A stretch of 64,000 nt of DNA from positions 8,897 to 72,896 of the forward strand of contig CANRFV010000008.1 of NCBI GenBank assembly GCA_947629985.1, given 5' to 3'. Of this stretch, positions 7,453 through 24,815 are shown one piece after another (the stretch's first letter is position 1; each line of letters starts with the position of its first letter). The stretch comes from an uncultured Clostridia bacterium. GTDB lineage: Bacteria; Bacillota; Clostridia; Christensenellales; CAG-314. The translations under genes were made by a program, and so were the position numbers. The notes below the pieces were generated by a model. The model was not told the origin of the DNA. It saw nothing but the letters and a program-made list of their open reading frames with translations, and did no database searches.

Positions 7453-8586
7453 TTATCGCTCTAAAACTTTTTGCAAGGCATCTGCTATCACTATCACATC
7501 TTCGTCGCTATTATATTTCCCGATAGAAATTCGTATTGTCCCTTTTGCGACGGATTCTTCAACGCCAATCGCTTGTAAGACATGGGAAATCTGTGTGTTG
7601 ACACTATCACAGGCCGCTCCCGTAGATATAGCGATTCCCATAAGATCCAACCGATGAAGAACAGCTTCCCCATCAGCGCCGGGAAAAGAAAGGCTGATGA
7701 TCCCCGTGGCAACTTCCCCGCCGCCGTTTCTTATAAATCTACAATTCCTCTGATGCAGAGAGGCAAGAAGGAGATTTTCAATTCTTGAAATTTTCCTTGT
7801 GTATTCATCAAGCATTTCACAGTTTTTCTTCAAAGCAACTGCCATGCCGACAATGGAGGCGACATTTTCCGTACCGGCGCGAAATCCATATTCTTGCGCT
7901 CCCCCGTCGTTCAGCGAATGGATTTGGTTCCCTTTACGAATATAGAGAAACCCTACCCCCTTGGGCCCATTGAACTTATGCGCGGAGGCAGAAAGCATAT
8001 CAACCCCCAGTTCTTCTACGTCAACCTTAATATGCCCGACGGCTTGCACGGCATCGGTATGAAAAAGTGCTCCATGCCGATGTGCGACATTCGCCAATTC
8101 ACAAATCGGTTCAATCGTGCCGATTTCATTGTTTACCATCATGACCGACACAAGGCCCGTAGGTTCAGTCATGGCAGCTTCCAATGCGCCCGCCGAAACA
8201 ATGCCGTTATGATCTGAACGGATGTAGGTTACATGATAGCCCTGCCTTTCGATGGTAGAGCAGGCATTCAAAATCGCATGATGCTCAATGTTTGAAGTAA
8301 TGATCTGCCTTTTGGACGAATCGGCATAAGCAGTCCCTTTGATTGCCCAATTATCCGATTCTGTTCCGCCTGACGTGAAAAATATTTCTTCCGGAGAAGC
8401 CCCAATACACGATGCCACAATTTCCCTTGCCTCTGCGAGTGCTTTCCGAGACCTTCGGGCAAACGAATATGGCTGAGAAGCATTTCCATACTCATCCAGC
8501 AGAAATGGCTTCATGGCTTCAAAGGCACACCCATCTAATTTGGTTGTCGCCGCATTATCGGCATAAATATAGTGTTTCATAGTCAC
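7453..8586 (-). CDS. cysteine desulfurase (NifS/IscS/DndA-like class V aminotransferase)
   Basis: 377 aa. Motifs seen: YADNAATTKL N-terminus, the PLP-lysine motif SASAHKFNGPKGVGFLY, and the active-site Cys in ISTGAACDS. Its ATG (8586) directly abuts the stop of the upstream 69-aa gene (8587). Confidence 0.9.
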   Translation of the reverse strand: MTMKHYIYADNAATTKLDGCAFEAMKPFLLDEYGNASQPYSFARRSRKALAEAREIVASCIGASPEEIFFTSGGTESDNWAIKGTAYADSSKRQIITSNIEHHAILNACSTIERQGYHVTYIRSDHNGIVSAGALEAAMTEPTGLVSVMMVNNEIGTIEPICELANVAHRHGALFHTDAVQAVGHIKVDVEELGVDMLSASAHKFNGPKGVGFLYIRKGNQIHSLNDGGAQEYGFRAGTENVASIVGMAVALKKNCEMLDEYTRKISRIENLLLASLHQRNCRFIRNGGGEVATGIISLSFPGADGEAVLHRLDLMGIAISTGAACDSVNTQISHVLQAIGVEESVAKGTIRISIGKYNSDEDVIVIADALQKVLER

Positions 8587-8796
8587 TTATTTGAACAAAG
8601 TACACCCATCCTCTTTGAATTGCTCTATTTTTTCAAGCAATTCTTCCGTAGATGTATTCAAATACTCTGCCAAACACTCCATGCAATAAAAGTGTTCAAT
8701 CTCTTTCCCTAGCAATTTCTTATTAAGTGCTATCGTGTCCTTGTCCAAATCTTCCTTAAAACACGAAACACAATTCACTTTTACGTTAGTCATCAT
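8587..8796 (-). CDS. 69-aa four-cysteine (CxxC...CxxC) mini-protein
   Basis: MMTNVKVNCVSCFKED...HFYCMECLAEY...EDGCTLFK contains two CxxC pairs plus a fifth Cys. It overlaps the brxL stop by 11 nt and abuts the desulfurase ATG, consistent with translational coupling. Confidence 0.55.
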   Translation of the reverse strand: MMTNVKVNCVSCFKEDLDKDTIALNKKLLGKEIEHFYCMECLAEYLNTSTEELLEKIEQFKEDGCTLFK

Positions 8797-10258
8797 AAGC
8801 TATTATTTTGAAGTCGGGGACATCTTTCCCTTTGTACTCTTTGTCAATTAGAGCCTGTTGCATCCTCACGATAGAGCGCATTTTTACTGCCGGACTCAAA
8901 CAATATGTTTTGAAATCTTTTATTGTTATATCCGTTACCTTTCTCACGTTGGGGAACAACAACTTCAAGTATGCCGTAGCGATACGTTTAATTGCTTCTG
9001 TATCTCTTGTATCAGCCCTGTCAGGCACTTCAAGTAATCTGTCCACAATAGTACGATATGAAGCATCATCCCTCAAAGCATGAAGAATGGAACAAAAATA
9101 TTCTGAATTTAATGCCCAACCTGTCAATTTAAGGTTGTCGTTCATTCTTGGTATATCCCACCCTTTGATAAAGCCATGAATTCGATCCAACAAAGCGGTC
9201 TCTTGGAACAAAGGCGGAAGCTCATTTAGCATATAACTATATTCATCCATGTTGTCTTGGGCAATATTCCCCAAGAAAACTATTCCCGCATCTGCTTCGC
9301 CTTCGAATCCGTTGCAATTGAAAGTCCCGTATTCCATGTAACCCTGTAAAATCGAACGCATTTCGTTGTCATCGTTGAATTTTACGAGTTTAATTTCATC
9401 TATTGCTACAAAATCGTTTCCCTGAATGAAACCATACCTTCTTGATGCGTTGTCATAAAACATTTTCGAACGAGTTACCTTTCCCCCGTCAACTAATGTT
9501 CCGTATTTACTAACGTGTCCAAATAAATATGATTTTCCTGTTCCTTTGGGTGCCAACTCTATTATATTTAACCTCTTCTCTATAAACGGCAAGAGCCTTG
9601 TTAGCACAGCAAGTTTTTGATGCTCATCGTCATAGCCATCAGCATTATAATCGACAGCACCAAGAATAATATCTATCCATTCATGAACGTTAAATTCATT
9701 GCGAATATCTTTGTAAAATTCAAGGTCAACCGTATATGGACAGAAGTTCTTAAATGAGCATAGTTTTATTTTACCCTTTTCCTTATGCTTTGCTTTGTCA
9801 CCTTCAAACTTTATGTCAAAATCGTCAGGATATTTATATCCCAACTCGACTATTCCCCAAACGTCTCTCGCACTAATCAGTTCGTCCTTGCACTCCAACC
9901 AAACGTGAGGTTCAATAATTGTCTCGCGATTAGTCAATCCAAAGTCGGGCAAAGAGAAGGAAATCGACTGATCCGCAACGCTAATATCGACGGTTATCCT
10001 CGTCAAAAATTTGACCCTTTCTCCGCCGATAACAATTCTGTCCTTTATTGCTATCCAATCTTCCTTTTTGGGGATTCGCGTTGAAATGAAGTCACTCATT
10101 CCGTCATAATCAATATTTCCTTCGTCATCCTGAAAAATCTTGATTAAATAGTCCCTCAAAAATGACGGTAGGTTAATGCTTGAAAAGAAGCTGGTGTTCT
10201 TTATATCTTTATAAACGACCATATCGTCAAAATACTCTCTTAACTTATCCGTAGCCAT
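8786..10258 (-). CDS. brxL: BrxL-like AAA+ ATPase lacking the C-terminal Lon-protease domain
   Basis: 490 aa. Several blocks match remembered type 1 BrxL sequence: LREYFDDMVVYKDI, Walker A ELAPKGTGKSY, Walker B FVAIDEI, IVFLGNI and LDRIHGFIKGWDIPRM. The protein ends about 90 aa after this last block, with no Lon-like domain. Confidence 0.8.
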   Translation of the reverse strand: MATDKLREYFDDMVVYKDIKNTSFFSSINLPSFLRDYLIKIFQDDEGNIDYDGMSDFISTRIPKKEDWIAIKDRIVIGGERVKFLTRITVDISVADQSISFSLPDFGLTNRETIIEPHVWLECKDELISARDVWGIVELGYKYPDDFDIKFEGDKAKHKEKGKIKLCSFKNFCPYTVDLEFYKDIRNEFNVHEWIDIILGAVDYNADGYDDEHQKLAVLTRLLPFIEKRLNIIELAPKGTGKSYLFGHVSKYGTLVDGGKVTRSKMFYDNASRRYGFIQGNDFVAIDEIKLVKFNDDNEMRSILQGYMEYGTFNCNGFEGEADAGIVFLGNIAQDNMDEYSYMLNELPPLFQETALLDRIHGFIKGWDIPRMNDNLKLTGWALNSEYFCSILHALRDDASYRTIVDRLLEVPDRADTRDTEAIKRIATAYLKLLFPNVRKVTDITIKDFKTYCLSPAVKMRSIVRMQQALIDKEYKGKDVPDFKIIAYDD

Positions 10259-10264: not shown

Positions 10265-12526
10265 TTACTCCCAAAGATTATTAGTTTTTGCGGATTCTTT
10301 TTCTACCACAAACGTGTTGTCCGATGAAACAAGTTCATCGCCTTCCCACACTTCAAATTGATACTCCCCCGCTTTTCTTATATCGTCTAATTCGGCGACA
10401 AAGTTGATGCCATCTTCTGTTTGCGTGTCATACGTTTTTCCATTGATCTTAATCAGGCAACGCGACAACTTTTTTGTACAGAAAAAGTGTAAAACTGCTT
10501 TCTTTTTGAAGCTGACTTTGATTACTTCATCAATCACTTTTATTTCCGCAAAGCTGACCTTCTCATATATTTCGATTATCGGCACTATGACTTCTTCCAA
10601 TGTCGCGCCGCCATGCATTTCCACCTTGCCGACTCTTCCACCTTTGAAGGCATTATAATCTGCCAATATATAATAGTCATCTTCTAATATGGCATTAGGG
10701 ATTTGTTTCATATCGGGAACAACTTTACAAACTCTCCCGCCATGTTCACCAACGGATTCAACATCCTCCTTGACCATCTCCGTGTTAAGGATAGCCAATC
10801 GCGTTGACCCGTGATCGGAGACAATTATAGCCTTCTTGATTGCTTGGCTCTTTATCTTTCTCCTTATACTGTCCAAACATTTATTGATGATTTTGAATTC
10901 TTCAATGATGTGAATTGGCAACTTCGTTTTATCAAAATCATAGTCATCCTTGCCGTCGTGTTTTAGCGTATCCAACTCTTTTTCATCTATAACATCTATT
11001 CCAATTTTGGCAAAATAACTTTTGAACTCGGTGTTCTTTACCGTAATCGTTGGAAGATTAGCTTTGCAAATGCTTATCTTGCAGACCAATCCTTTTTCTT
11101 GGCATTTTCTTTCTATAAAGCTCAAGAATTCCACGCCAAGAGCATCCACAAAGTATACAAGTGAATCTTCACAATTTATCTCGCCGATTTTTTCCGTTCT
11201 ATACACGACTCTGCGCTTGTATGAGCGCTCCACCGCCTCTGCATCCACCTTCTCCTTAAATTCAGGGGTGAGAGTATTCAGAACCTTCAAAAGTTTGTAT
11301 TCGTTGAAGTATTCCGTCAGGAAATCATCACCATAATTGTAGTCTACTAGATACTCATAAAGGTCGTTATAAACCCGCTTCAAAATCGTCAACAATTTAT
11401 TCTTCGTAAATTGAGATTTATACCGATCAATGATCTGTATTATGAGCTTCTTTTCGTTATCCGTGTTGTCGGTTAAATAATAGAGCGTATCCTCGTTTTT
11501 ATACTGAACGTACGAGCAATATTGATATATTGTTGTATCATCTTGAATTTCTTTTAGTATCCTCTTTCTGCTCTCGTATTTATCCCAGTAACCCTCTTCT
11601 TTATAATTTAAGCTCAAAATCGAATGATAAATATTGCTTATAAAGTCATTCACGGATTGCGATTTGTCTACCGAATAGTCAACCGCCCAATTCCCAGTTT
11701 TCGCTTCTTTGAGCTTCAAATAAATGAACAACAACCACTTTTCAAACGGTGTTTTATTGTTCCAATCCTTAATTTCAGAGATAATATCTCCCGTGTTTAT
11801 AAATTCTCTTATTGTTGCTTCTATTGAGCCTTCAATCAATTTTGTAAGAAGCAAGTTCCATTCATTATCGCTTCCCCATTTTCTATTCAGCTTCCGTGTT
11901 TGTTTATCTTTAAGACGAAGTAAATCATACGGCGTTTGACACTCCTCGATGCTTATCATCGACGTCGCAAAATCCGACTTGCAAAATCCTGTTATTACAT
12001 ATATTTTTTCGCCTTCGGTCTTTTCAACGCGTTGAAGTGCGCTCTTTAAGCCAATCTCGGCATTGACCATATTTTTGTAGGCATTAGATATAAATACCAA
12101 TGACGAAGAAAGCGGAACTTCTTCCTCCATCGAAGTAATTATGTTTTCCTTGTATTTGGGAATTTTCTCATCAAAGTACCTACCACATTGATACATTACA
12201 ATGATGAATTTCGTCGCGTAGGCTGTTCCGAGCAAGGAATGGATGGTTTTTTTGAATTCTTCTTTTCCCTTTAATCGAAGATATGTCCCAAGTCCATAAA
12301 TGAAGCAAAGCTCTTCATTACAGCAGTCCATATACTGATATATGTCTGCTGTATTGGGCAACTCGCTTCCCCAGTTAGCAAGATCAAAGACGACCTTCTT
12401 TTTCAGCATAAGGTATTGCTGAGAAAGTTCTTGTAAATCGTCTACATGAGAAACATCGACGATGAGCGGCCTCTTATCGTCGCTATTTCTGTATGCTTCA
12501 ATTCTGCGCTTAATCCATTCCTTCAT
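10265..12526 (-). CDS. pglZ: PglZ-domain (alkaline-phosphatase superfamily) protein
   Basis: 753 aa. The C-terminal half has LVYFVDALGVEFLSF and IIVSDHGSTRLA, which are the metal-site motifs typical of PglZ. Its position between brxC and brxL matches the BREX order. Confidence 0.8.
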   Translation of the reverse strand: MKEWIKRRIEAYRNSDDKRPLIVDVSHVDDLQELSQQYLMLKKKVVFDLANWGSELPNTADIYQYMDCCNEELCFIYGLGTYLRLKGKEEFKKTIHSLLGTAYATKFIIVMYQCGRYFDEKIPKYKENIITSMEEEVPLSSSLVFISNAYKNMVNAEIGLKSALQRVEKTEGEKIYVITGFCKSDFATSMISIEECQTPYDLLRLKDKQTRKLNRKWGSDNEWNLLLTKLIEGSIEATIREFINTGDIISEIKDWNNKTPFEKWLLFIYLKLKEAKTGNWAVDYSVDKSQSVNDFISNIYHSILSLNYKEEGYWDKYESRKRILKEIQDDTTIYQYCSYVQYKNEDTLYYLTDNTDNEKKLIIQIIDRYKSQFTKNKLLTILKRVYNDLYEYLVDYNYGDDFLTEYFNEYKLLKVLNTLTPEFKEKVDAEAVERSYKRRVVYRTEKIGEINCEDSLVYFVDALGVEFLSFIERKCQEKGLVCKISICKANLPTITVKNTEFKSYFAKIGIDVIDEKELDTLKHDGKDDYDFDKTKLPIHIIEEFKIINKCLDSIRRKIKSQAIKKAIIVSDHGSTRLAILNTEMVKEDVESVGEHGGRVCKVVPDMKQIPNAILEDDYYILADYNAFKGGRVGKVEMHGGATLEEVIVPIIEIYEKVSFAEIKVIDEVIKVSFKKKAVLHFFCTKKLSRCLIKINGKTYDTQTEDGINFVAELDDIRKAGEYQFEVWEGDELVSSDNTFVVEKESAKTNNLWE

Positions 12527-12537
12527 TTGACACTCCG

Positions 12538-15500
12538 TTACTTTTTCGTGTTTAGAATTTCAACGCCAACCGTTATATTCTCTGTGACAAGTTCCTTCAA
12601 ATATTTTCTTAACTCGTCAGAACCCATTGCATCTATAACAGCATTGACTTTTGCGCTTCCGCCGTTGATATACTTTTGATATGCAACTTTTGACACATAG
12701 TCTTCAATGGCGGCATTTCCCAACCAATTATAGGGGGAAATCATTGGGAACTTATTTCTGATTTTATCCTTAATGTCCTCGACATTATCAAATAGTGTCG
12801 TAAAATTGCGCAGTATGGCTTTTCTAAAACACGACTCTCTCGCATCAGCGTTCTTCAAGTTTCCATAGTGGTTAAATCGTGTCAGATACTCGATAGCATC
12901 ATCAATTTTAGACTTATCGCTTATTTGACTATTAATTACTTCAAACGATGCCCTTGCGTTTTCCTGCTCTGCCGCGGGAATCATACATAGTATAGGCATC
13001 GTATATTTGTTTGACCATGCCTCAGGGCTTTCAGTCCCTGTCCTTTCTTTCCACAAGGATAAAAGCCGATATTTAGACATATTTGCTTTGTATGACTTTA
13101 CTCCCGCATCCAACTTGGTTTGGAACTCACTATTCTCACAAGCAAATACGTTCGTCAGGTATCGTGAAGCGATTTCCGACACATCTTCATCTGAAAGCTC
13201 ATCAAGATAGAACGCTCCAATCTTTTTCAGTAAGGACAGCTGATTTTCGCAAAACTCCTTAAATCTTGCGCCTTGCGTTTTCAGCTCTGCCAAGAACTTT
13301 TCTTTATCTGTGTCATATATAAATCCATCACGGGAAATTTGATATAGGAATTCAAGGAGTCTTTGTAATTCTCCGACCTCCAACCGAACCGCACTATAAC
13401 TGACTTTGAATGTTTGGGCTTTCTTTCTCCACTCGTCTAAACAGTCGGCATACGAGGAAGTTCTGACAATCATTCCATTGCTTTCACTAACGATTTCATA
13501 CTCTGTTATTGTCTCATCAATTTTTTCGTCTATGGTATCCTTGTTCCACACCCAATTTGATGATTCACTAAATTTCTTACTGATTTCGTTGATGAATGTA
13601 CCCGTATCGCCTATCATTTGTGCAAGAGTAATCAGCCGTCCATCTTTGTAAACGCCCAAATACATTTGCATCCCTTGTGTGCAGTTTTCTCTTGTGAGTA
13701 TGTTTTTCAAATCATCTTGCAAATGCTCGTTTTGTGTGTAAAGCCTTCCGATTTCGAGAGCGATGTCTGTTTCCGTTTTTTGCGTAGAAGAATTGTTCGC
13801 CAATTCAACATACAAGTCAACCAGTTCATCGAGAATGGCTTTCGAGTTAACGGTGTTGTATTCGACATATTTCAACGTCCAAATCGGAAATCCGAACGAT
13901 GTCATTTTAGTTCTGACATACGACCTTGTGTTTTCGATTGAGGAACAAAGTTTTTCATCAATGCCAAAAACAAACGAAGTTCCCTTATTAAACGCTCTCT
14001 GTTCGGGCGACATGGCAACAATGTACTTTGTTCTGTATTTAGGATTGGGTGTTTGTTGCTGCTTGATGATTTCATCAATCATCTCTTTCATCTTTTCAAC
14101 CGACATTGGATCGGTTGTTACATCATCCGTCCAATTGTATGAATCATTGGCATATTCTCTCAATACAAAACCCAAAACAAACGCAGAGAGATTGCAGGGC
14201 ATAAAACCAAACGGGGGTTCAATCAATGCATCGTATATATCAGAAATTGATACTCGCGTCCCCGCGTCTAAATTCTTTGCAATGACATCTTCTACTGCAA
14301 TTTTAACCCTCGATAAAAGTTCATTGGGTCTTGTTTTCCAGTAGTTTTCAACATTCCAAACCCCTGCAAATTGTTTCTCCAACTTTGTATTTTCATTGGG
14401 GGATTTGAATGTTCCCTTAATTTCTCCTGTAATTCCACATTCGGCACCTTGTTTAAGAGCGTTCGATGCATACATATTGTCGATTACATTGACGTGCGTT
14501 TCCAAAGAGAATTCAAAGTGTTCCCTGTCGAATTCTTTGAGAATTGAAATTACTTCTGATTCGGAATTACACATTGTCCCAATTCGATCCGAATATGTAA
14601 ATAACCTTGGGGTGGAAGTTTTGATTTGTATTTTCCACCGCTTCAATGCTTCCTTTGCGTTTTTGTAGTAGGTCGCAGACTGACCATTGTCCTTGCCCCT
14701 CTGATAATTGCCGTTTGCCATATTCTCAACAAATTGCTCAAACAAATCATTGTTGAGATACGTCGCCGAATAGTCTATGAAAACTATTTTGTCAAATTCG
14801 TCATTGAAAGTTTTTTCAATTTCAACTCTTATTTTGGTACTCTCTTCTTCGTTGCGCGCAAACGCATAGACCGCGTAAAGTCGTGTCGGATGATTGGCGG
14901 AATCCGACCTTAATTGAGCGACTGTCATTCTAATATTTTCGTATGTAACAAGTCTAACATTGGGAAATCTTATTTCCAAATGTTTAGGAAGTTTGAAATC
15001 ATTAACAAATTCTCCCTCCTCAACTAACTTGTCCGTTCTAATCTCGCTTCTAAGCCTCACTTTTTCCTGTTCTATTTCTTCACGATTCCCATTTGAAATA
15101 AGCGCAGAATATTTTGTCGCGCCGGCTCCCATTGGACGTTCAAAAATAATTTGTTCTCCAACCAAGCTCTGTGCTAATGAGGCGGCATTGCTAATAGAAA
15201 TATCTGTTCCCTCAAACGCCAATCCGAGGTTTTTAGCGTTTGGAATAAACAAAGAAACCGAATCCCCAACTTTTTCATTGATCGCTTGAAGCAACAAAAT
15301 AGTTTTTAGTACCCTTTTCTGCTTTGCCATCAAATTATGAGACTCTGTCCTTCCATAAACATCTAAAATAGACCTGATTTGAGGTGCTAATTGATCCTTC
15401 CCCTTTTCATAGAAGAAATCCCAAAGCATATCAACAGTCAATAAAGTTTCATTATCCTCGGGTCCATAGTTGTCAATGAACCATTGGAAGCTCTTAATTT

Positions 15501-16740
15501 CATCGCCCCTATCGTTTTTTATGAAATCAAACATACTTCTTTGGTTTGAGTCAAATGCCGAAGCGATATGTTTCAAAACGAGCGCAGCATACGGATGAAT
15601 CGGAAGTACACCTTTTAATTCCCTTTCTCCGATTTTTGCCGCTTTAATAACTTCGTTCCGTGAATCGTGAGTTAAATCATATAACTCATCAACAATCTGA
15701 TCCCAATCTTGTATAACCGCAGGATCGTTGACTTTTTGCATCGCGTGTGCAGTTAAAACAAAAGCCATATTATCAGGCAATTCAATCGAACAATGCGGTG
15801 CGATGAATCTCCCGTTAATTTTCGTTTTTATGTCATCATTGGTATTCTCAAAAAATATGTCCGATTTATGAGTAACAATCGCAAAGTAAAATGGATGCGA
15901 TTCGCTCATTTCTGCCATATATTGAAAGCCTGATAAGTTCCCCTTGTTGATTTCAAAGTAGTCGGAAAACTCATCCCAGATAAAGAAGATTGCCTTCAAG
16001 TTATTTTTATCAATGACATCAAGTATCCATGTCCTTAAATCCTCCTTTTTAAGAACGAATGGCTTGATTCCCTTTTCTTCGCCAACTTGCGAGATTTTCT
16101 CAATCAAGGATTGCAATGCTTTTTCGGACGTGTATGTTTTCAAATTCTCCAACACAACATCTGCGTTTGCACCTGCGAAGCGAACCCTATACTCACCCGA
16201 CTGAATGATGTTGTTAAAGTAATTCTTGTTTGCATCGTCGGAAAGCCAATTTATCATTGCCTGTTTAATACCGACTTGTCCCAAGTATTCATATCCCTTT
16301 TCACGCAGAGCAGAAATGATACTCTCCTGAATACTCTCCATCAGGATACGATCATTCTTAATTTCAGACGAACCCATTCTATGAACAGCAAGTACCTTTT
16401 TAGGCTGATTCTTGATGCTGTAAAACTCGTTGTACAGGTCGTTGGATAAAACAGTCTTATACCTGTCAAAATACTCCTTTAACTCTTCATTTGAACAGTC
16501 TAACAATTTTTTTAATGTCAAAACGGCATGAGACTTGCCTGTTCCATAAGCTCCTTCAACCCAAATTGACATTCTTTGCCCGTTAGTTAATACGCTCTTG
16601 GTTTGATTGAGAAGTCTGATAAACGAATCATGCGGATAATATGATTTCCAGACATTCGGCTGAGTCCTGATGACGTCCTCATTAACCGCAGGGAAATAGC
16701 TTTCGTTGATTTGAAAATAGTTTCTATACTTCTTACTCAT
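12538..16740 (-). CDS. brxC: BrxC/PglY-like large P-loop ATPase
   Basis: 1400 aa. Walker A is IWVEGAYGTGKSHAVLTLKKLL and Walker B is IFFIWDEFSDY, in the same N-terminal context as BrxC. AGGAGA lies upstream of the ATG. Confidence 0.7.
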   Translation of the reverse strand: MSKKYRNYFQINESYFPAVNEDVIRTQPNVWKSYYPHDSFIRLLNQTKSVLTNGQRMSIWVEGAYGTGKSHAVLTLKKLLDCSNEELKEYFDRYKTVLSNDLYNEFYSIKNQPKKVLAVHRMGSSEIKNDRILMESIQESIISALREKGYEYLGQVGIKQAMINWLSDDANKNYFNNIIQSGEYRVRFAGANADVVLENLKTYTSEKALQSLIEKISQVGEEKGIKPFVLKKEDLRTWILDVIDKNNLKAIFFIWDEFSDYFEINKGNLSGFQYMAEMSESHPFYFAIVTHKSDIFFENTNDDIKTKINGRFIAPHCSIELPDNMAFVLTAHAMQKVNDPAVIQDWDQIVDELYDLTHDSRNEVIKAAKIGERELKGVLPIHPYAALVLKHIASAFDSNQRSMFDFIKNDRGDEIKSFQWFIDNYGPEDNETLLTVDMLWDFFYEKGKDQLAPQIRSILDVYGRTESHNLMAKQKRVLKTILLLQAINEKVGDSVSLFIPNAKNLGLAFEGTDISISNAASLAQSLVGEQIIFERPMGAGATKYSALISNGNREEIEQEKVRLRSEIRTDKLVEEGEFVNDFKLPKHLEIRFPNVRLVTYENIRMTVAQLRSDSANHPTRLYAVYAFARNEEESTKIRVEIEKTFNDEFDKIVFIDYSATYLNNDLFEQFVENMANGNYQRGKDNGQSATYYKNAKEALKRWKIQIKTSTPRLFTYSDRIGTMCNSESEVISILKEFDREHFEFSLETHVNVIDNMYASNALKQGAECGITGEIKGTFKSPNENTKLEKQFAGVWNVENYWKTRPNELLSRVKIAVEDVIAKNLDAGTRVSISDIYDALIEPPFGFMPCNLSAFVLGFVLREYANDSYNWTDDVTTDPMSVEKMKEMIDEIIKQQQTPNPKYRTKYIVAMSPEQRAFNKGTSFVFGIDEKLCSSIENTRSYVRTKMTSFGFPIWTLKYVEYNTVNSKAILDELVDLYVELANNSSTQKTETDIALEIGRLYTQNEHLQDDLKNILTRENCTQGMQMYLGVYKDGRLITLAQMIGDTGTFINEISKKFSESSNWVWNKDTIDEKIDETITEYEIVSESNGMIVRTSSYADCLDEWRKKAQTFKVSYSAVRLEVGELQRLLEFLYQISRDGFIYDTDKEKFLAELKTQGARFKEFCENQLSLLKKIGAFYLDELSDEDVSEIASRYLTNVFACENSEFQTKLDAGVKSYKANMSKYRLLSLWKERTGTESPEAWSNKYTMPILCMIPAAEQENARASFEVINSQISDKSKIDDAIEYLTRFNHYGNLKNADARESCFRKAILRNFTTLFDNVEDIKDKIRNKFPMISPYNWLGNAAIEDYVSKVAYQKYINGGSAKVNAVIDAMGSDELRKYLKELVTENITVGVEILNTKK

Positions 16741-16751: not shown

Positions 16752-19109
16752 TTAGAACAACCCAAGAACGTCGTTCGATGTTTTATCGTTTTTCAAATTG
16801 ATGTTGTCCAATCCAAGGGTGAACGAAACGGATATAAATTCGGGGTAGTTAATTGCCAACCCTTGCAGTAACTTTTCCATTATATCACGATTCAATCCAA
16901 ATATTTCAGTTGGGCTGATACCATCACTTTCAATATCATGATTTAGAAGGCGTGTAAGCGAGAACTGATAGTATTCACCGCAATTTTCTGCAAATTTGTA
17001 AAGCGAATATAGAACAACCTTTGGATCAGGGTCATCCCATGAAACACGCATTATGCTGTTCAACTTTCTTTTGCCATTTTTGACTTCATAATCACACTTA
17101 CCCAACCCTATTTCTTCCGATAACGGTTTAATGGAGATAAAAGTATTCTTGAACGCACTTGCTATGTGATCCTTCGTGTTCTCTGTTAAGTTTGAGTCTA
17201 ACATACCAATTAGGAGATTCGTATCCACATAAGAATTGAATTCTATGTGCTTGATCCACCAGTTAAACTCTGCTGTGTATGCAAGATTCGACAGCATCAA
17301 TCCCCAAGCGGATACATCGTCAACTCCCATAGCCATAACCAATCTGCCAAACGACGTGATTTGATTCTTCTCGGTTATGCCCGCATCTTTAAGAAAGTTT
17401 TTGAAAACGTCAATCTTCTTGCTTCCGAGACTATGAGTTTCCCAAAAAGTATCGCCTTTTTCAAAAAACTCCTTTACCCACTCGTATTCAATTCCGAAGT
17501 TCGTGTATCTGTCAATACTGCCCATTTTTCTCTCTCCTTTTGGTAATTTAAGTGATGCCGAAACCAAGCACCCATTGTCTATATCATAACATTTCTTACA
17601 TTTTACACATTGATTATCTATGCGAACAACGTTATTGTCAAATGAAATATATCCGTTGGGGCAGTTTGCTTCGCAAACACGACAGCCGATACAATAACAC
17701 GCCTTTCGCAAAACCGTTTTTAGATATGAGCCGAAATATATATCGTTCCGTGAATTCGATGATACATCGACCGTGAAAATAAGCGCATCCGTTTGTTCCT
17801 CTATATGAATGACATATATTTTGTTCTCATATACAACTTCCGCTCGATTATCCTCAATGGACACAATGCGTCCAAGTGTTTTTAACCACTCGCACCATTG
17901 GGCGTTTTTGTTTTTGATTGTTACCGTCAATATGCCATCTTTCAGTTCATCGAAATACACAGGTTTTGCAATATTTAACTCTCTGCCACTCCTTCTTGCT
18001 TTCCAACCGCCTATGTTCATGAATTCTTCTATTGCTTTCTGCGAACTCAAGTCTTTTGAGGTTGTTTCAAGTATAATATCGTTGAATGTTTTCGTGGTAT
18101 TTTCGCCGTTTACAGATGTACCGTAGCATTCCATTTTTATGTAGGAATTCTTTTGCCCCGCCAACGGGCAAATTAAACATCCTGCTCTGCTGTTCCCCTT
18201 TTTATAAGCATCATTAAGCGGAAGTCCTTGCTGATATATATACAGAAATAGTTCAGCCGTATTCCAATCAAGTATAGGATGGCAACTATATTGTCCCTTT
18301 ACTTTTTCGCCAAGACTAACTTCCTCATATTCGCTTCGAGATTCGCTTTCGTCGCCTCGTACTCCTGTAAAAGCCATTCCCTTAAATTGACTGTTTTTGA
18401 GATATTGTCGCAAAAACAAAATCTGCGGAGTCGATTTATGTACACTACAACACCATCTTAATCGTTGAGCCGGGGGCCCGAAAACTCTCCAGGAATCTTT
18501 GGGGTCTAAATGAGATTTAGATATATAAAATCTTATTCCTTTTTTTTCGCAGTCAGCTTCTACCTGTTTGACAAGTTGATATGTATCCGAAAATTCCATG
18601 CCTGTGTCGCCAAACAACACTATAAAATCGCTATGCGGCAAAGACCGTTGTACAATGTCTAACGCCACAATGCTATCTTTCCCTCCGCTGAAGGCGACAT
18701 AGAATATATCTACTTTATCCTTATATTTTAGATATTGTCCATACGTCTTTTTAATGGTATGCTGAACCATTTGATCTAACAGCTTCCTGTTCTTATCAAC
18801 CATCTTCGCAACATTAACGAACTGCAATGGAGCATCGTCAGGTTCTGGCTGATCTAAAAATACTATCTCGGGCGCACTACACATTGCACCGCCCTTTGTT
18901 TTTGCGACTACTCTCCCCTTGTAAATATAGGTATTTGCTTCTGCCCACATATATGGAAACGAGTCGTCCTTTGCATACTTCCACACTTTGTCAAAACCTA
19001 AAATGTCCAACTCTTGATAGTAGACAGGTCTCGGCTCTCTGCTCATTTGCAAAGGGGAACTGTTTAGAAGCAAGCCGCCCGTTTCCGTATCCCACTCGTA
19101 TGAATACAC
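16752..19109 (-). CDS. brxP: BrxP: PAPS-reductase/PP-loop ATP pyrophosphatase with Fe-S cluster motifs (DndC/SspD-like)
   Basis: 785 aa. The PP-loop is VAFSGGKDSIVALDIV. Ferredoxin-like Cys clusters are CYCIGCRVCEANCP and CVKCKKCYDIDNGC. The GTG start has AGGAGG 9 nt upstream, inside the end of the preceding gene. Confidence 0.8.
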   Translation of the reverse strand: MYSYEWDTETGGLLLNSSPLQMSREPRPVYYQELDILGFDKVWKYAKDDSFPYMWAEANTYIYKGRVVAKTKGGAMCSAPEIVFLDQPEPDDAPLQFVNVAKMVDKNRKLLDQMVQHTIKKTYGQYLKYKDKVDIFYVAFSGGKDSIVALDIVQRSLPHSDFIVLFGDTGMEFSDTYQLVKQVEADCEKKGIRFYISKSHLDPKDSWRVFGPPAQRLRWCCSVHKSTPQILFLRQYLKNSQFKGMAFTGVRGDESESRSEYEEVSLGEKVKGQYSCHPILDWNTAELFLYIYQQGLPLNDAYKKGNSRAGCLICPLAGQKNSYIKMECYGTSVNGENTTKTFNDIILETTSKDLSSQKAIEEFMNIGGWKARRSGRELNIAKPVYFDELKDGILTVTIKNKNAQWCEWLKTLGRIVSIEDNRAEVVYENKIYVIHIEEQTDALIFTVDVSSNSRNDIYFGSYLKTVLRKACYCIGCRVCEANCPNGYISFDNNVVRIDNQCVKCKKCYDIDNGCLVSASLKLPKGERKMGSIDRYTNFGIEYEWVKEFFEKGDTFWETHSLGSKKIDVFKNFLKDAGITEKNQITSFGRLVMAMGVDDVSAWGLMLSNLAYTAEFNWWIKHIEFNSYVDTNLLIGMLDSNLTENTKDHIASAFKNTFISIKPLSEEIGLGKCDYEVKNGKRKLNSIMRVSWDDPDPKVVLYSLYKFAENCGEYYQFSLTRLLNHDIESDGISPTEIFGLNRDIMEKLLQGLAINYPEFISVSFTLGLDNINLKNDKTSNDVLGLF

Positions 19110-19112
19110 TAT

Positions 19113-22100
19113 TTAGACCTCCTTCTTGGCTTGCTCAATCAATGCCAACATATTTTTGACTTTCCTCGTTCTAATATAGTCATTTGCAAGGAGATACTCA
19201 AATGCTCTTTCTTCATCAAAGAGTTTATGCTCTTTTATAATATCAATTAGTAAGTCATCGAAACCATGAATATCGGAATCTTTCTTGACTATGGCACCGA
19301 CGGGCTTATCCCCATTAAACGATGCGTGTATTAAGCCATATTTTTTACTTCCAAAATACACATAGCTCTCAAGAACAAATGCGTTCCAATTGACCTCAAT
19401 TGTCGGAAAATCGGTATAGTTAATTATATCAGCAAAAGGGACATACTTATTTAGGCAATAGCTCGCAATTGCCTCATCAATTTGTTCTGCCTTAAACGTA
19501 ATTAGATCGCGCCGTATAAATGAACTCTGAGATGTTCTAACCGACGAGGACATAACGGCATCCCAATCAATATAGTTCTTGTCAATGCTATTTCTGAACT
19601 CTTCGAGTTCTGCAAAAGAAAACTTTTCCCTCTGTTCGCAGAAGCCTCTATATAGTGATTTTACATCGACAACAAATCCAAGTCTGCTAATTACGTCGCC
19701 CCGAAAACTGTATTTATGTTCCAACTTTATCCGTATTATGTTTTTGATACCCAAATCCGTCACGCCCGGATTTGTCTCAGGCACCTCGGGGATCTCTTTG
19801 GCGATATACCCATACAGTTCCCCTCCGCTTACTTGTTCAACGACGGATAAACGTCGAGCGAGAAATTCATCTATCATAGATAGCTGTTCTTCATCGAGAA
19901 TAAACACATCCTTATAGAAATACGATCTTCCGCGGTAGTTGACAACGAAATCTCTATCTCGTATCATCGCATCAATAACTGAATGAGCGGCATTTGGCAA
20001 TGCATCATACAGTTCATCTATATCCATCGGACGTCCCTTGTTCATGAATATACTAATTAGCTCTTCCCGCAGATTAGCCTGAATTCCTTTGGGCGTCATA
20101 AAGTCAAGATAATAGGAATATTCATCGGCAAACACAAAAGCAAAATAGCTTTTCAACATATCTTCGCTGAACAAGCTGTTGAATTTGCTACTAAACTTTT
20201 CATACAAGGCAGAATAGTATATTGCCGACGTACTATCAAAACTCTCATCGATATATTTTTTTATCTCATTTCTTAATTCTTTCGGGACAATCGATTCAAG
20301 ATAGACTTTTCCTTCGCTTATAAAGCCAGCTATCCTTACTTTGCGTAAAAACAGTTCATCAGAGTCCTCGAAAGGCTTATTTAATATCTCCTCATATCGA
20401 CGAATAAATTTACGCTTTCTTAATGGATTTTCAAAAGCAAAACCATCTGAAAACGAATCCTCTATCACAACCTTGTAATCCTCGGCTTTTGGCTCCACGG
20501 CTTTGATTGATTGGCTGTTCAGTCCTAAATCTGCATGATTAGATTTAAGAAATCCTTCATATCTGCTTAAAGCATATAAAAACCACTCGTATTTTTCGTC
20601 TTTCTCATAAGGCTTCAACTGTCGCCGAATATCATCCAGTTCGGATGTCGTTACCACAGACAAAATATCCTTATTAAGGAGAGAACTTATTTCCCTTATC
20701 ATGTCAACACATTTTTGGGCATGATGAGGCGCTCGGTGTTTTTTCCCATCGACCTGATGCCTTTCCATGTATTGAGTTTTGATATATGTATAAAAATCCG
20801 CCTCCGAAATAGAAACCGAGTAATGAGTTTTCTCCGCTACCTTTGGAAGAGTATCCGTACCGTCCTTTTCCTCATATTCTATAATCAAACTCGAATAATG
20901 AATCTCGCATTTGTCCATAAATGACTTCATAGACTTGACTAATTCCGTCGCGCTTCTATTCCCTTCTGCATAAATATGATTTACAATCTCTAACGGACGG
21001 CGCAAGTCTGTTCTGTTATAAGAGAGGAAAGTATAGCTCGGATTTTTTGCGAGTTCGTTAAATATACCTGCGAACTCGTCATACATTGCCTTTACGACAT
21101 ACTTATAACATTCTATCCAGTTGCTGAATCCCTCTCTACTATTATCCTTGTAATTAACCTTCGTCGGACTTGTAAAGCTCATATTTTTAATTGCCTGCCA
21201 ATTAACCGACTTTACTTTTTGCGATTGTAATGTTCCTTTTACAAGAGCATGGGCTTCTCGTAAAATAGCCTCATATTCCTGCCTATTTTGAAGATACAAC
21301 TTTGCCATTTCGTCAAAAATCGCGGTCTTATGCATAGATGCGCGGTCAGGATAAAACGAACTGGCTAAATTTGCCATTTGAATACTGATCCCGTTTATGT
21401 TTCTAAACGTATCGTCTATTTCTATCCCTTGATTTTGAGCTTTTGCTCGGAGATCACGAGATAACTGTTCGATAACTCCACTTCGTAATGTCTTATCGCC
21501 CTCAATTTTCCAAAAAGCCTCAATGAGCAACACGGTTTCATACTTGTCCCACACTATACGCCTTGGCGTAACTCTTTCGGTTACTCTTGATTGAGGTTGT
21601 TCGGCTTCGTTGTTACTTGCAAAATCGGGTACAGTTCGACGTGCGTAATCTTCGTCGCTAATCTCTATATAAGATGGATGCCCTGCTTGCATTGTTTTTT
21701 GGTCAGGTTGTCCGTCAAATTGAACGATGATCGTTTCCTTCTCTTTTTTGACTATTCGTCCAAAACCGAAAGATTTATGATAGACATAACTTTTTTCGTC
21801 GTCTTCTAATAATATTTCTTGTTCGTGAGCAAGAAAATACGCATTTACAGCATCAACATATTGATAGTATTTTGACAAGTCAAAAGCATAAGCCGATGAT
21901 AAATCAATCGCCTCGACCTCAATTTTGGCGAATTTCATTATGCCATTTTTGTCGGCATAAAACCTTAATCTTTCATTCGCCTTTTTTGCACCAATAATTG
22001 CGCTTCTTATATCCAAAAAGATGTTGGCGTCGCTATCTTTTGCATATTCAAATATGCGATAGAAAAGATGTGCGACATCTTTATTCTGAAAGAAGTCAAT

Positions 22101-22460
22101 GCATCGAGCCTGTTCGTCTATATATTTTTCTTCCACAGCATCGGATTCTTTTTCTTCCTCGACATGAGCTGTTTGGAGCTTACCGTCCTGTTCATCCGAT
22201 GCCATTGACAAAAACAGGAGATAATATTTGCAATAAAGCGTAAATGCTTTATGTGTCTTCTTTTGCTTTTTCTTGAAATTCTTGTTAGTAAGTAATCTGT
22301 CCCGTAATACAGCAAATTCCTTTGCATCCACAGACCAAACGTCTCTTCCAAGATAAAGTGAAAAGGCGTCCTCCATTAAGTCCGCAAATTGTTTGGGCGT
22401 TACTTTCTTCAACTTGTCGGAAGCAACCCAATCTATAAATTGCTGTTTTCTTGTTCCCAT
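19113..22460 (-). CDS. 1115-aa orphan protein, first gene of the BREX-like operon (function unknown)
   Basis: This is a long uninterrupted ORF, and its stop is 3 nt from the brxP start. I saw no Walker A, no SAM-binding or (D/N/S)PP(Y/F/W) motif, and no nuclease motif. It contains an H-x2-FG-x-G-x-V...V-x-F mini-domain (YVYHKSFGFGRIVKKEKETIIVQFDG) and an FRNINGISIQMANL block. Confidence 0.6.
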   Translation of the reverse strand: MGTRKQQFIDWVASDKLKKVTPKQFADLMEDAFSLYLGRDVWSVDAKEFAVLRDRLLTNKNFKKKQKKTHKAFTLYCKYYLLFLSMASDEQDGKLQTAHVEEEKESDAVEEKYIDEQARCIDFFQNKDVAHLFYRIFEYAKDSDANIFLDIRSAIIGAKKANERLRFYADKNGIMKFAKIEVEAIDLSSAYAFDLSKYYQYVDAVNAYFLAHEQEILLEDDEKSYVYHKSFGFGRIVKKEKETIIVQFDGQPDQKTMQAGHPSYIEISDEDYARRTVPDFASNNEAEQPQSRVTERVTPRRIVWDKYETVLLIEAFWKIEGDKTLRSGVIEQLSRDLRAKAQNQGIEIDDTFRNINGISIQMANLASSFYPDRASMHKTAIFDEMAKLYLQNRQEYEAILREAHALVKGTLQSQKVKSVNWQAIKNMSFTSPTKVNYKDNSREGFSNWIECYKYVVKAMYDEFAGIFNELAKNPSYTFLSYNRTDLRRPLEIVNHIYAEGNRSATELVKSMKSFMDKCEIHYSSLIIEYEEKDGTDTLPKVAEKTHYSVSISEADFYTYIKTQYMERHQVDGKKHRAPHHAQKCVDMIREISSLLNKDILSVVTTSELDDIRRQLKPYEKDEKYEWFLYALSRYEGFLKSNHADLGLNSQSIKAVEPKAEDYKVVIEDSFSDGFAFENPLRKRKFIRRYEEILNKPFEDSDELFLRKVRIAGFISEGKVYLESIVPKELRNEIKKYIDESFDSTSAIYYSALYEKFSSKFNSLFSEDMLKSYFAFVFADEYSYYLDFMTPKGIQANLREELISIFMNKGRPMDIDELYDALPNAAHSVIDAMIRDRDFVVNYRGRSYFYKDVFILDEEQLSMIDEFLARRLSVVEQVSGGELYGYIAKEIPEVPETNPGVTDLGIKNIIRIKLEHKYSFRGDVISRLGFVVDVKSLYRGFCEQREKFSFAELEEFRNSIDKNYIDWDAVMSSSVRTSQSSFIRRDLITFKAEQIDEAIASYCLNKYVPFADIINYTDFPTIEVNWNAFVLESYVYFGSKKYGLIHASFNGDKPVGAIVKKDSDIHGFDDLLIDIIKEHKLFDEERAFEYLLANDYIRTRKVKNMLALIEQAKKEV

Positions 22461-22570
22461 GTTATTTGTTCGCTTTATAGTTTTTTCGTATACATACGCA
22501 AGTGTTTGAAGGCACTTCTTTACATTCTTCTCGTTACGTCATCCTGCATTAAGAACGACATAACTATTCC

Positions 22571-23974: not shown

Positions 23975-23984
23975 AGTTATCTCC

Positions 23985-24194: not shown

Positions 24195-24358
24195 AGAACG
24201 CCTCTCAACTATCATTGGAAATATTATAGCATAGTTTCAATAGAAATGCAATCAAAAATCTATAATTTGGACTTTGATTCGGCAAAACAAAAGAGCAGAG
24301 AAATTCTCTCTACTCTTTACTCCGAACTTGCTGTTTTTGTATCTTATTTATTGAATTA

Positions 24359-24371: not shown

Positions 24372-24404
24372 TTTACCTTGTTCTAAACTTATTTCTTTTA
24401 CAAA

Positions 24405-24787: not shown

Positions 24788-24815
24788 GATTTGTGTACAA
24801 TGACGCGAAACAACG

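Follow-up and report, generated by a model that had tools for sequence, protein, structure and literature searches.

Type 4 BREX and its relatives

To our knowledge, no mechanism by which BREX systems stop phage has been established. Of the BREX types, type 4 has received the least study, and its writing of phosphorothioate (PT) marks was shown only in 2024–2026. Its gene set, brxP-brxC-pglZ-brxL, reportedly goes back to Goldfarb in 2015. In type 1 BREX, the large multi-domain protein PglX recognizes DNA and serves restriction as well as modification. The brxP-brxC-pglZ-brxL system is the PT-writing form of BREX (Yuan et al. 2026, PMC12914056; PMC12839542). The genes named in these two papers, the main ones on type 4 BREX, are those of BrxC, PAPS reductase, DUF4007, PglZ, BrxL, a cysteine desulfurase, a small zinc-finger regulator and BrxR. 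The cysteine desulfurase has been put forward as a sixth component (PMC12839542), and BrxR is a WYL-type regulator of BREX (PMC9122589).

A preliminary description of the locus treated here had noted a gene for a 1115-aa protein directly before brxP, referred to below as X, and had placed it outside the described type 4 gene set. Neither of the two papers mentions it, and the literature search turned up no mutant in any homologue of X. X is missing from the gene list of type 4 BREX as published, yet it stands beside BrxP in nearly every locus sampled.

The operon in the window

The window, the whole 64,000-nt stretch of DNA that was analysed, comes from an uncultured Clostridia bacterium. Judged from its genes, the operon downstream of X is a type 4 BREX operon (Table 1). 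The PADLOC and Pfam scans identify a PAPS-reductase BrxP instead of the PglX methyltransferase, and the BrxC/PglY ATPase, a type 4 PglZ and a short BrxL lie in the same operon. All four defining genes are in canonical order and are accompanied by a cysteine desulfurase, the likely sulfur donor; locus L176 has a cysteine desulfurase at the equivalent position (61% identity). The C-terminal region of BrxP matches a second BrxP model in the same scans. A serine recombinase is also encoded in the window. The sequencing runs that contain the X sequence are DNA metagenomes only, from rabbit and other gut.

Table 1. Features of the X-brxP-brxC-pglZ-brxL region; positions are those of the window.
Feature	Position	Strand	Basis
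Class-V aminotransferase / cysteine desulfurase	7453..8586	minus	Aminotran_5 1.1e-82
brxL, short form (490 aa)	8786..10258	minus	TIGR02688 4.3e-114; BrxL_N, BrxL_ATPase
pglZ, type 4 form	10265..12526	minus	NF033445 (BREX-4 PglZ) 8.6e-111; DUF7864, DUF7863, DUF7862
brxC/pglY ATPase (1400 aa)	12538..16740	minus	PADLOC BrxC 2.2e-250
brxP (785 aa), PAPS-reductase domain, ferredoxin-like Cys cluster	16752..19109	minus	PADLOC BrxP 1.7e-239; Pfam PAPS_reduct 5.5e-28
X/brxP junction	19109..19128	minus	AGGAGG within X end codons, TAA, 3 nt, brxP GTG
Gene X (1115-aa modular, non-enzymatic)	19113..22460	minus	conserved gene immediately 5′ of brxP in type 4 BREX
Constant C-terminal module, aa 655-1115: about six predicted winged helices + helical tail	19116..20498	minus	AF2, Foldseek
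FP-x5-WN-x3-LES, aa 1018-1036	19353..19409	minus	near-invariant columns in alignments A1, A2, A4
D6, aa 551-641: helical bundle	20538..20810	minus	AF2
D5, aa 430-531: optional alpha+beta domain	20868..21173	minus	AF2; presence/absence across relatives
D4, aa 300-410: five-helix domain, W-x3-E-x2-LL...LS-x2-LR...FRN-x-NG	21231..21563	minus	alignment A5
D3, aa 225-276: optional small Tudor/SH3-type beta-barrel	21633..21788	minus	AF2 strands 225-267; Foldseek
D2, aa 114-216: optional alpha+beta domain	21813..22121	minus	AF2; DUF2553 match sub-threshold
D1, aa 1-96: basic helical bundle	22173..22460	minus	AF2 helices 4-96, pLDDT >80; pI 9.6

The X frame runs from an ATG at 22460 to 19113 and encodes 1115 aa free of internal stops. 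On the minus strand the junction reads ...AAG AAG GAG GTC TAA ATA GTG TAT TCA. The stop TAA (19115-19113) is followed by ATA and then by the GTG at 19109 of the 785-aa brxP ORF, and the brxP Shine–Dalgarno sequence AGGAGG lies inside the final X codons, 8 nt 5′ of the GTG. This long clean frame, with its stop 3 nt before brxP and the embedded AGGAGG, is as it had been described. Because the gap is short and the Shine–Dalgarno sequence is embedded in X, the junction suggests a likely site of translational coupling; the co-translation that had been claimed goes further than these two features, which do not demonstrate it.

X had also been called the first gene of the operon. This is uncertain, since two same-strand ORFs, one of 137 aa and one for a YhcG-type PDDEXK nuclease, stand upstream at a distance of 110 nt. 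The promoter and terminator scan gave no clear promoter or terminator in that gap. The two ORFs were rejected as conserved members of the system; no other locus contains either of them.

Conservation of X beside brxP

X is conserved across phyla in synteny with brxP-brxC-pglZ-brxL, abutting brxP. When genome loci were scanned with the X motif FP-x5-WN-x3-LES as the pattern, BrxP-BrxC-PglZ-BrxL lay immediately downstream of the X relative in 77 of 80 species-level loci, with hosts that include Clostridia, Bacteroidales, Alpha- and Deltaproteobacteria, Planctomycetes and Spirochaetes. All six relatives that were checked singly are located immediately before PAPS_reduct-BrxC-PglZ-BrxL. In the reverse direction, starting from BrxP, X is found immediately upstream in all 52 metagenome loci that were informative (BrxP identity ≥38%), and the X-brxP gap is ≤28 nt by the script's measure in 48 of these. 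A more distant BrxP clade has a truncated X homologue in 10 of 16 loci (hhalign probability 96.5-97.7). At E≤1e-3, the family comprises 3676 clusters (50% identity). Same-strand adjacency of X and the core is therefore seen across distant taxa and in both search directions, which is not a random distribution with respect to brxP, and X, a conserved gene outside the described brxP-C-Z-L set, is very probably the genuine type 4 BREX component that the preliminary description had thought possible.

The surroundings of the loci vary. BREX-4 loci are often in mobile settings, with relaxase/T4CP genes in L006 and phage replication genes in L008. A tblastn search of phages with X returned a single virome scaffold, which carries a complete BREX-4, and the same search of plasmids gave no useful match. 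One orphan copy, in locus L089, lies away from any BREX locus. The 93 distinct genes directly upstream of X include 23 with HTH_26, 13 with HTH_17, 12 with HTH_3 and 5 with WYL domains. A gene for a small Cro/C1, HTH_17 or WYL-WCX regulator is immediately 5′ of X in approximately 45% of loci.

Domain architecture of X

X gave nothing above threshold in Pfam, NCBIfam, PADLOC or PHROGs, either as the whole protein or as its six N-terminal domains singly, and no relevant PDB sequence match was obtained with the single sequence, the full-family profile or the D4 profile. It matches none of the PADLOC families at E≤0.1; hence the BrxA, BrxB, PglX and BrxHI/HII models are all unmatched. A clear known-family assignment thus did not emerge from these remote-homology searches. 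By regular expression, no Walker A motif (P-loop), MTase motif I or IV, CxxC, or credible HNH or PD-(D/E)xK was found, in agreement with the earlier reading of X as a protein with no catalytic motif. Among the 62 family members scanned, the one enzyme domain is a weak Phage_integrase match (E=3.9e-5), and the remaining domain matches are DNA- or protein-binding modules. Because an enzymatic domain is absent, X fits the sensor or scaffold role that had been suggested for it.

Structure prediction with AlphaFold and Foldseek, which had been recommended at the outset, divides the protein into a constant C-terminal half and a variable N-terminal half. The C-terminal AF2 model (pLDDT 90.5) consists of repeating H-H-H-E-E units that match solved tandem winged-helix arrays in Foldseek: UFL1, SelB WH1-4, Dcc1 and MukE, with 8qfc_B (1.6e-6) and 1lva (1.8e-3) as the best matches. 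An internal repeat with an offset of about 134 aa (probability 91%) indicates that the array is apparently built of three two-winged-helix repeats. The last 460 aa of X are modelled as consecutive winged helices, as in UFL1, the SelB C-terminus (WH1-4), Dcc1, MukE and Rpc5, but the sequence identity is 9-12% and the global TM 0.2, the latter because X and the known arrays bend differently. The models point to no more than an architecture in common with UFL1, SelB, Dcc1, MukE and Rpc5. The known arrays have varied roles, as protein scaffolds and in RNA binding. Comparison of the X array with BrxP (including DUF4007), BrxC and PglZ gave hhalign probabilities <2%, and paralogy with any of them was rejected.

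The C-terminal module is present at the C-terminus of 150 of 150 X relatives among the matches listed. FP-x5-WN-x3-LES, the best-conserved motif of the family, spans the loop and third helix of the last predicted winged helix. The array is acidic (pI 5.0; family median 5.1), which is still compatible with DNA binding via local basic patches.

The N-terminal half (AF2 pLDDT 86.3) is made up of small modules in varying combinations, and family members range from 600 to 1860 aa in length. Foldseek of the 655-aa N-terminal model against PDB and BFVD resolved the Tudor barrel alone; D1, D2, D4, D5 and D6 are left without an assignment because such a multi-domain query ranks small domains poorly. 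D1 may be related to the SAM-like DNA-binding domain found at the N-terminus of phage integrases: in the window protein it matches Phage_int_SAM_4 below the cutoff (E=0.044), and X relatives match Phage_int_SAM_1/5 with E down to 1.4e-7. The D6 equivalent of the relative P0038 (residues 748-784) matches Phage_int_SAM_1 at E=1.6e-6 in a whole-protein search, which is below the per-stretch threshold. D2 is missing from many relatives. RNAP alpha-CTD, sigma region 4 and HARE-HTH modules also occur among the relatives.

In the PcrA/UvrD helicases, the Tudor domain at the C-terminus interacts with UvrB and with the beta subunit of RNA polymerase. A resemblance of X to this domain had been noticed in the segment YVYHKSFGFG..., which is located at aa 225-257 (window 21690-21788), and it is borne out by structure at aa ~225-276. 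In the model, D3 is a small barrel of five strands; it superposes on solved PcrA/UvrD Tudor domains (5dma, TM 0.69, rmsd 2.4 Å; 7egt_B, TM 0.77, rmsd 1.8 Å, 22% identity; probability 1.00) and has the FG-x-G signature in common with them, and aa 218-282 gave no Pfam or PDB sequence match. The Tudor domain of PcrA/UvrD sits in helicases, whereas the barrel of X is internal, optional, found only in close relatives and part of a non-helicase protein.

The segment RIVWDKYE...FRNINGISIQMANL, at aa 301-365 (window 21366-21560), belongs to D4, which is specific to the X family, occurs in 70 of 97 loci and is often at the extreme N-terminus of relatives. No match to D4 was found in Pfam or the PDB, and tblastn against plasmids gave nothing useful. 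In a database of 5.8 billion proteins, the matches to the D4 profile are all <190 aa, are X or X fragments and have no HNH partner; the two that were inspected are X fragments, one split by an insertion and the other ending at a contig end, so that these matches carry no information on HNH fusions. The segment had been likened to a block at the N-termini of some HNH-type restriction proteins, a resemblance that the D4 searches did not confirm, as they gave no HNH protein.

Divergence within the operon

X diverges faster than any other protein of the operon. Compared with the closest locus it is 55% identical, with 83% for BrxP, 84% for BrxC and 77% for PglZ. Over 97 loci, the distances of the C-terminal array correlate with those of BrxC (r=0.94), PglZ (r=0.946) and BrxP (r=0.675), values that compare related sequences and can be inflated by shared descent. 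In the partial Mantel tests, the values of 0.39 with BrxC and 0.50 with PglZ were reached by 0 of 300 permutations, and that of 0.006 with BrxP by 110 of 300. D4 likewise gave a partial r of 0.023 with BrxP when BrxC and PglZ were controlled for. The nearest neighbour is held in common with X by BrxC in 70 loci, by PglZ in 59 and by BrxP in 40. By these distances, the array has a common history with BrxC and PglZ and not with BrxP, though the weaker X-BrxP correlation could partly reflect the slower, more saturated divergence of BrxP and not gene exchange. Because X, BrxC and PglZ appear to have one history and the intervening BrxP to have been exchanged, the comparison suggests that type 4 BREX is made of a writer module and a core module that are separable.

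Proposed role and alternative explanations

Since X co-evolves with BrxC and PglZ, it is tentatively regarded as a non-enzymatic subunit of the BrxC/PglZ core of type 4 BREX that serves as adaptor or sensor on the restriction side. The correlated distances suggest that the winged-helix array may be a docking platform that holds X on this core. The variable N-terminal heads would interact with DNA or with machinery bound to it, for example RNA polymerase; candidates are the integrase-SAM-like helical bundles (a weak likeness), D4 and the PcrA-like Tudor barrel, and in relatives alpha-CTD, sigma region 4 and HARE-HTH. With a docking array and DNA-engaging heads, X would therefore act in restriction or sensing, and not in PT writing, by bringing the core to incoming DNA or reporting the state of that DNA. 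The tight coupling to brxP points more naturally to BrxP as a partner. PglX, like X, is a large subunit with several DNA-binding-type modules, but X lacks the methyltransferase domain and a PADLOC PglX match, and no homology was detected. By this analogy X could fill the reader role that type 4 BREX loses with PglX. A more specific and rather doubtful proposal makes X the non-self sensor that PT-based BREX has so far lacked, a non-enzymatic reader with its array on BrxC/PglZ and interchangeable heads that would choose the DNA to be attacked, or the machinery on it, for example RNA polymerase on phage DNA. The earlier idea that X replaces BrxA/BrxB is unlikely to hold, as a BrxA-like DUF4007 is found in BrxP and a BrxB-like iSTAND in type 4 PglZ (PMC12839542).

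X might instead be an HsdS- or TRD-like subunit that directs BrxP-BrxC phosphorothioation to its targets. It is rich in DNA-binding-type modules, diverges fast through domain shuffling and is apparently coupled in translation to brxP. Exchange of brxC between species failed to restore PT, and for that reason the specificity determinant was left unassigned in the study, which used the B. salyersiae operon (PMC12914056). However, neither the array nor D4 covaries with BrxP after correction for BrxC and PglZ, the known PT motifs of 3-4 nt would hardly need some ten binding modules, and BrxP, McrA and BrxC alone suffice for native PT dinucleotides, in native proportions, in another host, B. thetaiotaomicron (PMC12914056). 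Indirectly, this hints that X may not be needed for PT modification, and a role as specificity subunit, which had been one of the first suggestions, is disfavoured and appears unlikely. Just as unlikely is a reader of the PT mark itself, in which one or more of the winged helices, chiefly the conserved last one, would bind DNA, sense PT to tell self from non-self and license or block PglZ, BrxL and BrxC. PT in DNA is sensed by the sulfur-binding domain (SBD) of ScoMcrA, but profile A1 run against all PDB sequences at E≤10 gave no SBD chain and only an unrelated SNARE, and no SBD entry is among the best 50 Foldseek matches of the C-terminal model. The array is also acidic overall, and the residue resemblance of X to the Y-P / H-R cavity of the SBD is an analogy and not an alignment.

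A role for X as transcriptional regulator of the operon, as a giant counterpart of BrxR, is very unlikely. Like BrxR, X lies at or near the operon 5′ end and contains winged helices, being made solely of winged-helix and HTH-type modules, and sigma region 4 or RNAP alpha-CTD is found in some of the relatives. BrxR, however, has a wHTH-WYL-WCX architecture, and the Pfam-type scans found no WYL or WCX match in X; in many loci these domains, or small HTHs, sit in separate genes upstream, and almost half of the loci already have a small regulator gene directly before X. A protein of such length with six acidic winged helices is unlike known repressors, and its co-evolution with the BrxC and PglZ proteins would be unexpected for a promoter-binding protein. 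The last alternative, an unrelated mobile-element or phage gene that only adjoins BREX, could draw on the mobile contexts of L006 and L008, the serine recombinase of the window and the orphan in L089. It is scarcely credible, as the position and strand of X are constant in ~130 independent loci with unrelated outer flanks and X co-evolves with BrxC and PglZ; the conserved synteny in both sets of loci effectively refutes it.

Implications for type 4 BREX

As X occurs in nearly all type 4 operons and is off the gene list, reconstitutions with brxPCZL only, and deletion series of the same scope, may be incomplete, and PADLOC and similar detection models lack a core gene. X is a concrete, testable candidate for target recognition on the restriction side. 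It is also natural material for domain swaps, because a constant, putatively docking half is combined with a shuffled head half. If X were the non-self sensor of the system, head shuffling would set the range of defence independently of the PT writer BrxP, itself exchanged, and some of the heads, namely PcrA Tudor, alpha-CTD, sigma region 4 and HARE-HTH, would have been taken over from the machinery of transcription.

Position of X in the type 4 BREX operon

X, the protein encoded directly upstream of brxP, is part of an operon that is type 4 BREX. Its gene is followed by those of BrxP, BrxC (PADLOC, 2.2e-250), a type 4 PglZ (NF033445, 8.6e-111) and a short BrxL with a match to TIGR02688. The minus-strand end of X reads ...AAG AAG GAG GTC TAA ATA GTG..., which confirms the earlier observation that its stop codon lies 3 nt from the brxP GTG and that AGGAGG is found within its last codons. 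This tight abutment probably serves balanced expression; alone, it does not name the partner of X. The description of X as the first gene of the operon requires qualification, as the same strand carries a YhcG-type PDDEXK nuclease gene and a 137-aa ORF upstream of it, with a separation of 110 nt. A consensus scan of this 110-nt gap found no clear promoter or terminator.

Positions of features in the window, of domains within X and of unusual loci elsewhere
Feature	Sequence	Position	Strand	Remarks
X ORF	window	22460->19113	minus	ATG start, 1115 aa
D1	X	aa 1-96		basic helical bundle
D2	X	aa 114-216		alpha+beta
D3	X	aa 225-276		small beta-barrel
D4	X	aa 300-410		five-helix domain
D5	X	aa 430-531		alpha+beta
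D6	X	aa 551-641		helical
BrxP	window	16752-19109	minus	PADLOC 1.7e-239; PAPS_reduct 5.5e-28
Class-V aminotransferase / cysteine desulfurase	window	7453-8586	minus	Aminotran_5 1.1e-82; comes after brxL
Serine recombinase and sigma-70 region 4 protein	window	2842-7133	minus	
137-aa ORF	window	22571-22984	minus	no family
YhcG nuclease	window	22985-24028	minus	
Terminator-like site	window	24318-24290	minus	before YhcG gene
Promoter-like site	window	24538-24509	minus	before YhcG gene
Hairpin	window	24756-24787		13-bp stem
Orphan X homologue	L089	9989-12247		752 aa
X-BrxP cluster	L176 (MT835511.1)	11959-26417		
Split X	L172	5488-10145		
Split X	L173	3183-7840		
Extra ORF	L030	12248-13942		564 aa
BrxP remnant	L024	5534-5689		7% of query

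Type 4 was reportedly defined by Goldfarb in 2015 as brxP, brxC, pglZ and brxL. The preliminary description placed X outside this gene set, and it is indeed missing both from the published set and from PADLOC. Type 4 BREX writes phosphorothioate (PT), with brxPCZL called “the core 4 genes” and brxR non-essential (Yuan et al., PMC12914056). A 2026 NAR survey of 457 type 4 taxa names BrxC, PAPS reductase, DUF4007, PglZ and BrxL, and extends the type 4 list by a cysteine desulfurase and a small zinc-finger regulator; no large winged-helix protein encoded upstream is mentioned in its text or in the contents of its supplement (PMC12839542). A wider literature search likewise found no description of X.

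Conservation of the X-BrxP association

All six relatives whose contigs were examined, down to 22-25% identity, are encoded on the same strand as PAPS_reduct-BrxC-PglZ-BrxL and immediately before it. A genome scan using one genome per GTDB species returned 263 loci, and in 77 of the best 80, which were examined, BrxP is immediately downstream of X, with BrxC, PglZ and BrxL usually next. The three exceptions comprise two contigs too short to tell and one true orphan, the locus L089, where the X homologue adjoins gatB and polysaccharide genes. The hosts are in the majority gut Clostridia, alongside Alistipes, Bacteroidales, Muribaculaceae, Alpha- and Deltaproteobacteria, Planctomycetes and Spirochaetes.

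For the reverse test, metagenome contigs were scanned with a BrxP alignment, and six-frame ORFs were searched with an HMM of the C-terminal module of X. X is present in 52/52 loci with enough upstream DNA and a BrxP at least 38% identical to that of the window, and its last sense codon is 28 nt or less from the brxP start in 48 of them. The HMM fails for a more distant clade of BrxP (35% identity or less). Ten of 16 loci there nevertheless have, upstream, an ORF of 329-1445 aa with N-terminal modules in common with X and a shortened C-terminal module, aligning to part of the X array (hhalign probability 97.7% and 96.5%). Two others have no more than a small ORF that weakly matches D4, and no form of X is detectable in the remaining four. 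Thus, X or a truncated form stands beside BrxP in almost every informative locus sampled, making it a near-universal companion of BrxP in these loci. The synteny is conserved in both directions; X is a genuine BREX-associated gene, and a more general one than the preliminary description could know.

Family and domain architecture

X is a member of a large, unnamed protein family. It has no match among Pfam, NCBIfam and PADLOC families or PDB sequences. A word-indexed search gave 33 relatives, an underestimate of family size; when 1.84 billion representatives were scanned in full with an HMM, 3676 clusters matched at E<=1e-3 and 1358 at E<=1e-30. The 150 best matches are 591 to 1859 aa long, and in all of them the best-matching stretch reaches the C-terminus. 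With no PADLOC match and hhalign probabilities below 2% to BrxP, BrxC and PglZ, X is not detectably related to other BREX proteins. The reported lack of a catalytic motif also stands, as there is no Walker A, methyltransferase, CxxC, HNH or PD-(D/E)xK signature.

The constant C-terminal part of X is a winged-helix array. An AlphaFold2 model of aa 640-1115 (30-sequence alignment, pLDDT 90.5) has repeated helix-helix-helix-strand-strand units, forming about six winged helices, and a helical tail. The best Foldseek PDB match is the tandem winged-helix array of UFL1 (1.6e-6), with SelB WH1-4, Dcc1, MukE and the Rpc5 tandem winged helix also among the best. Profile self-comparison reveals an internal repeat at an offset of ~134 aa, suggesting three two-winged-helix units. 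The array is acidic (pI 5.0, net charge -17; family median pI 5.1), and the most conserved residues of the family are in the last winged helix: R975, F989, D995, F1018-P1019, W1025-N1026, L1030-E1031, S1038, N1049 and G1055.

The N-terminal part (aa 1-655, pLDDT 86.3) is modelled by AlphaFold2 as six compact domains, D1-D6, with disordered linkers between them. The proposed Tudor-like domain gains structural support, as the predicted D3 superposes on the C-terminal Tudor domain of PcrA/UvrD (5dma, TM 0.69; 7egt_B, TM 0.77, rmsd 1.8 A, 22% identity), and also on the SH3-like C-terminal domain of retroviral integrases. A relationship of D1 and D6 to the SAM-like N-terminal domain of phage integrases is possible; the match is only E=0.044 for D1 of the window and 1e-6 to 1e-7 for relatives. 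The W...FRN-x-NG block, with its putative likeness to the N-termini of some HNH-type restriction proteins, is in D4. This domain occurs in 70/97 loci, frequently as the very N-terminus, and its profile matches only X and X fragments, with Pfam, PDB and plasmids empty.

D2, D3, D5 and D6 are variably present among relatives. In Pfam scans of 62 family members, the longest included, almost all matches are binding modules: Phage_int_SAM, RNAP alpha-CTD (two stretches), sigma-70 region 4, HHH_5, TFIIE-beta, HARE-HTH, Sel1 and DUF4357. The sole enzyme-domain match is one weak Phage_integrase. DUF4357 (PF14267, best E=5.4e-16) is carried by the relatives P0012, P0014 and P0015. These also have ~120 additional residues, located either inside the N-terminal part of the array or immediately before it.

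Unusual loci and surroundings

The orphan of L089 is situated between gatB/DeoR genes and polysaccharide-synthesis genes, with no BREX genes within 10 kb and ~2.4 kb of ORF-poor DNA after it; it is possibly what is left of a deleted system. L176, a 45.9-kb scaffold from human faeces titled “UNVERIFIED Bacteriophage sp.”, has a full cluster of X (975 aa) and BrxP (41% identity); three ORFs (1380, 748 and 503 aa) and a cysteine desulfurase of 61% identity come next. Either a phage-like element carries BREX-4 here or the virome contains a piece of host DNA. In L172 and L173, a 495-aa gene of opposite orientation interrupts X, leaving a 101-aa ORF with D4 and an 843-aa remainder; this gene has no Pfam family and is probably an insertion element. 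The extra ORF of L030, also without a Pfam family, lies between X and BrxP as a possible additional accessory gene; in L039 there is a gap of ~1.8 kb in the same place. L024 has X, BrxC, PglZ, BrxL and the desulfurase, with only a BrxP remnant between X and BrxC, and is possibly a BREX-4 whose writer has been lost.

A desulfurase gene of 53-64% identity is also downstream of the BREX genes in L024, L128, L139 and L176, and these placements agree with the “sixth component” proposal of PMC12839542. Just past the BREX genes of the window there is a large serine recombinase (Resolvase, Recombinase, Zn_ribbon_recom and DUF4368) and a sigma-70 region 4 protein; the island possibly belongs to an integrative mobile element. 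On the other side, the YhcG/DUF1016 PD-(D/E)xK nuclease (PADLOC candidate PDC-S02, 5.5e-127) and the 137-aa ORF were found beside X in no other locus compared, and may represent an independent defence gene or auxiliary nuclease. The strong hairpin just 3′ of the valS stop has a terminator score on both strands and a clean T-tract on the minus strand, and probably terminates valS.

Divergence and candidate role of X

Relative to the closest locus, X is 55% identical, and BrxP, BrxC and PglZ are 83%, 84% and 77% identical, so that by sequence identity X is the fastest-diverging protein of the operon. Pairwise distance matrices of the X array, BrxP, BrxC and PglZ were compared across 97 non-redundant complete loci. 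The distances of X follow those of BrxC (r=0.94) and PglZ (r=0.946), and not those of BrxP (r=0.675); absolute values are inflated by shared descent, and the informative part is the contrast of BrxP with BrxC and PglZ. Partial Mantel values with X are 0.39 for BrxC and 0.50 for PglZ, reached by 0/300 permutations, and 0.006 for BrxP, reached by 110/300. X and BrxC point to the same nearest-neighbour locus in 70 cases, X and PglZ in 59, and X and BrxP in only 40. The weaker correlation is seen in all BrxP sub-domains. X shares its history with BrxC and PglZ and not with BrxP, though BrxP sits between X and BrxC. Mosaic loci, with BrxC 67-73% identical to that of the window, have a BrxP of either ~53% (L012-L014, L016) or 73-77% identity (L004, L015, L017), which suggests exchange of the PT-writing gene between cores that otherwise co-evolve. 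Such an exchange perhaps switches the PT motif.

These patterns bear on what X may do. That X is a chance neighbour of BREX is effectively excluded; its place beside BrxP is kept in nearly all sampled loci. The same adjacency could suit a target-recognition subunit for BrxP, but the distances of X do not follow BrxP and D4 does not track it either; native PT dinucleotides were reproduced in B. thetaiotaomicron by brxP, mcrA and brxC of B. salyersiae (PMC12914056). A regulatory role could be imagined for a winged-helix protein heading the BREX genes, and is ruled against by separate HTH/WYL genes: the 93 distinct genes immediately upstream of X include 23 HTH_26, 13 HTH_17, 12 HTH_3 and five WYL genes, four of the latter with the WCX of BrxR. 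X as a PT reader is a specific version of the sensor idea raised earlier; its conserved aromatic-Pro plus Arg patch recalls the sulfur cavity of the ScoMcrA sulfur-binding domain (PMC6224610), to which no homology was detected at the sequence level.

X therefore combines the lack of a catalytic domain with a constant acidic winged-helix array, variable binding heads and rapid modular evolution. While we infer its function, the candidate role is concrete: the array would dock X on the BrxC-PglZ core, the heads would engage DNA or DNA-bound machinery, and X would act on the sensing or restriction side and not in PT writing.
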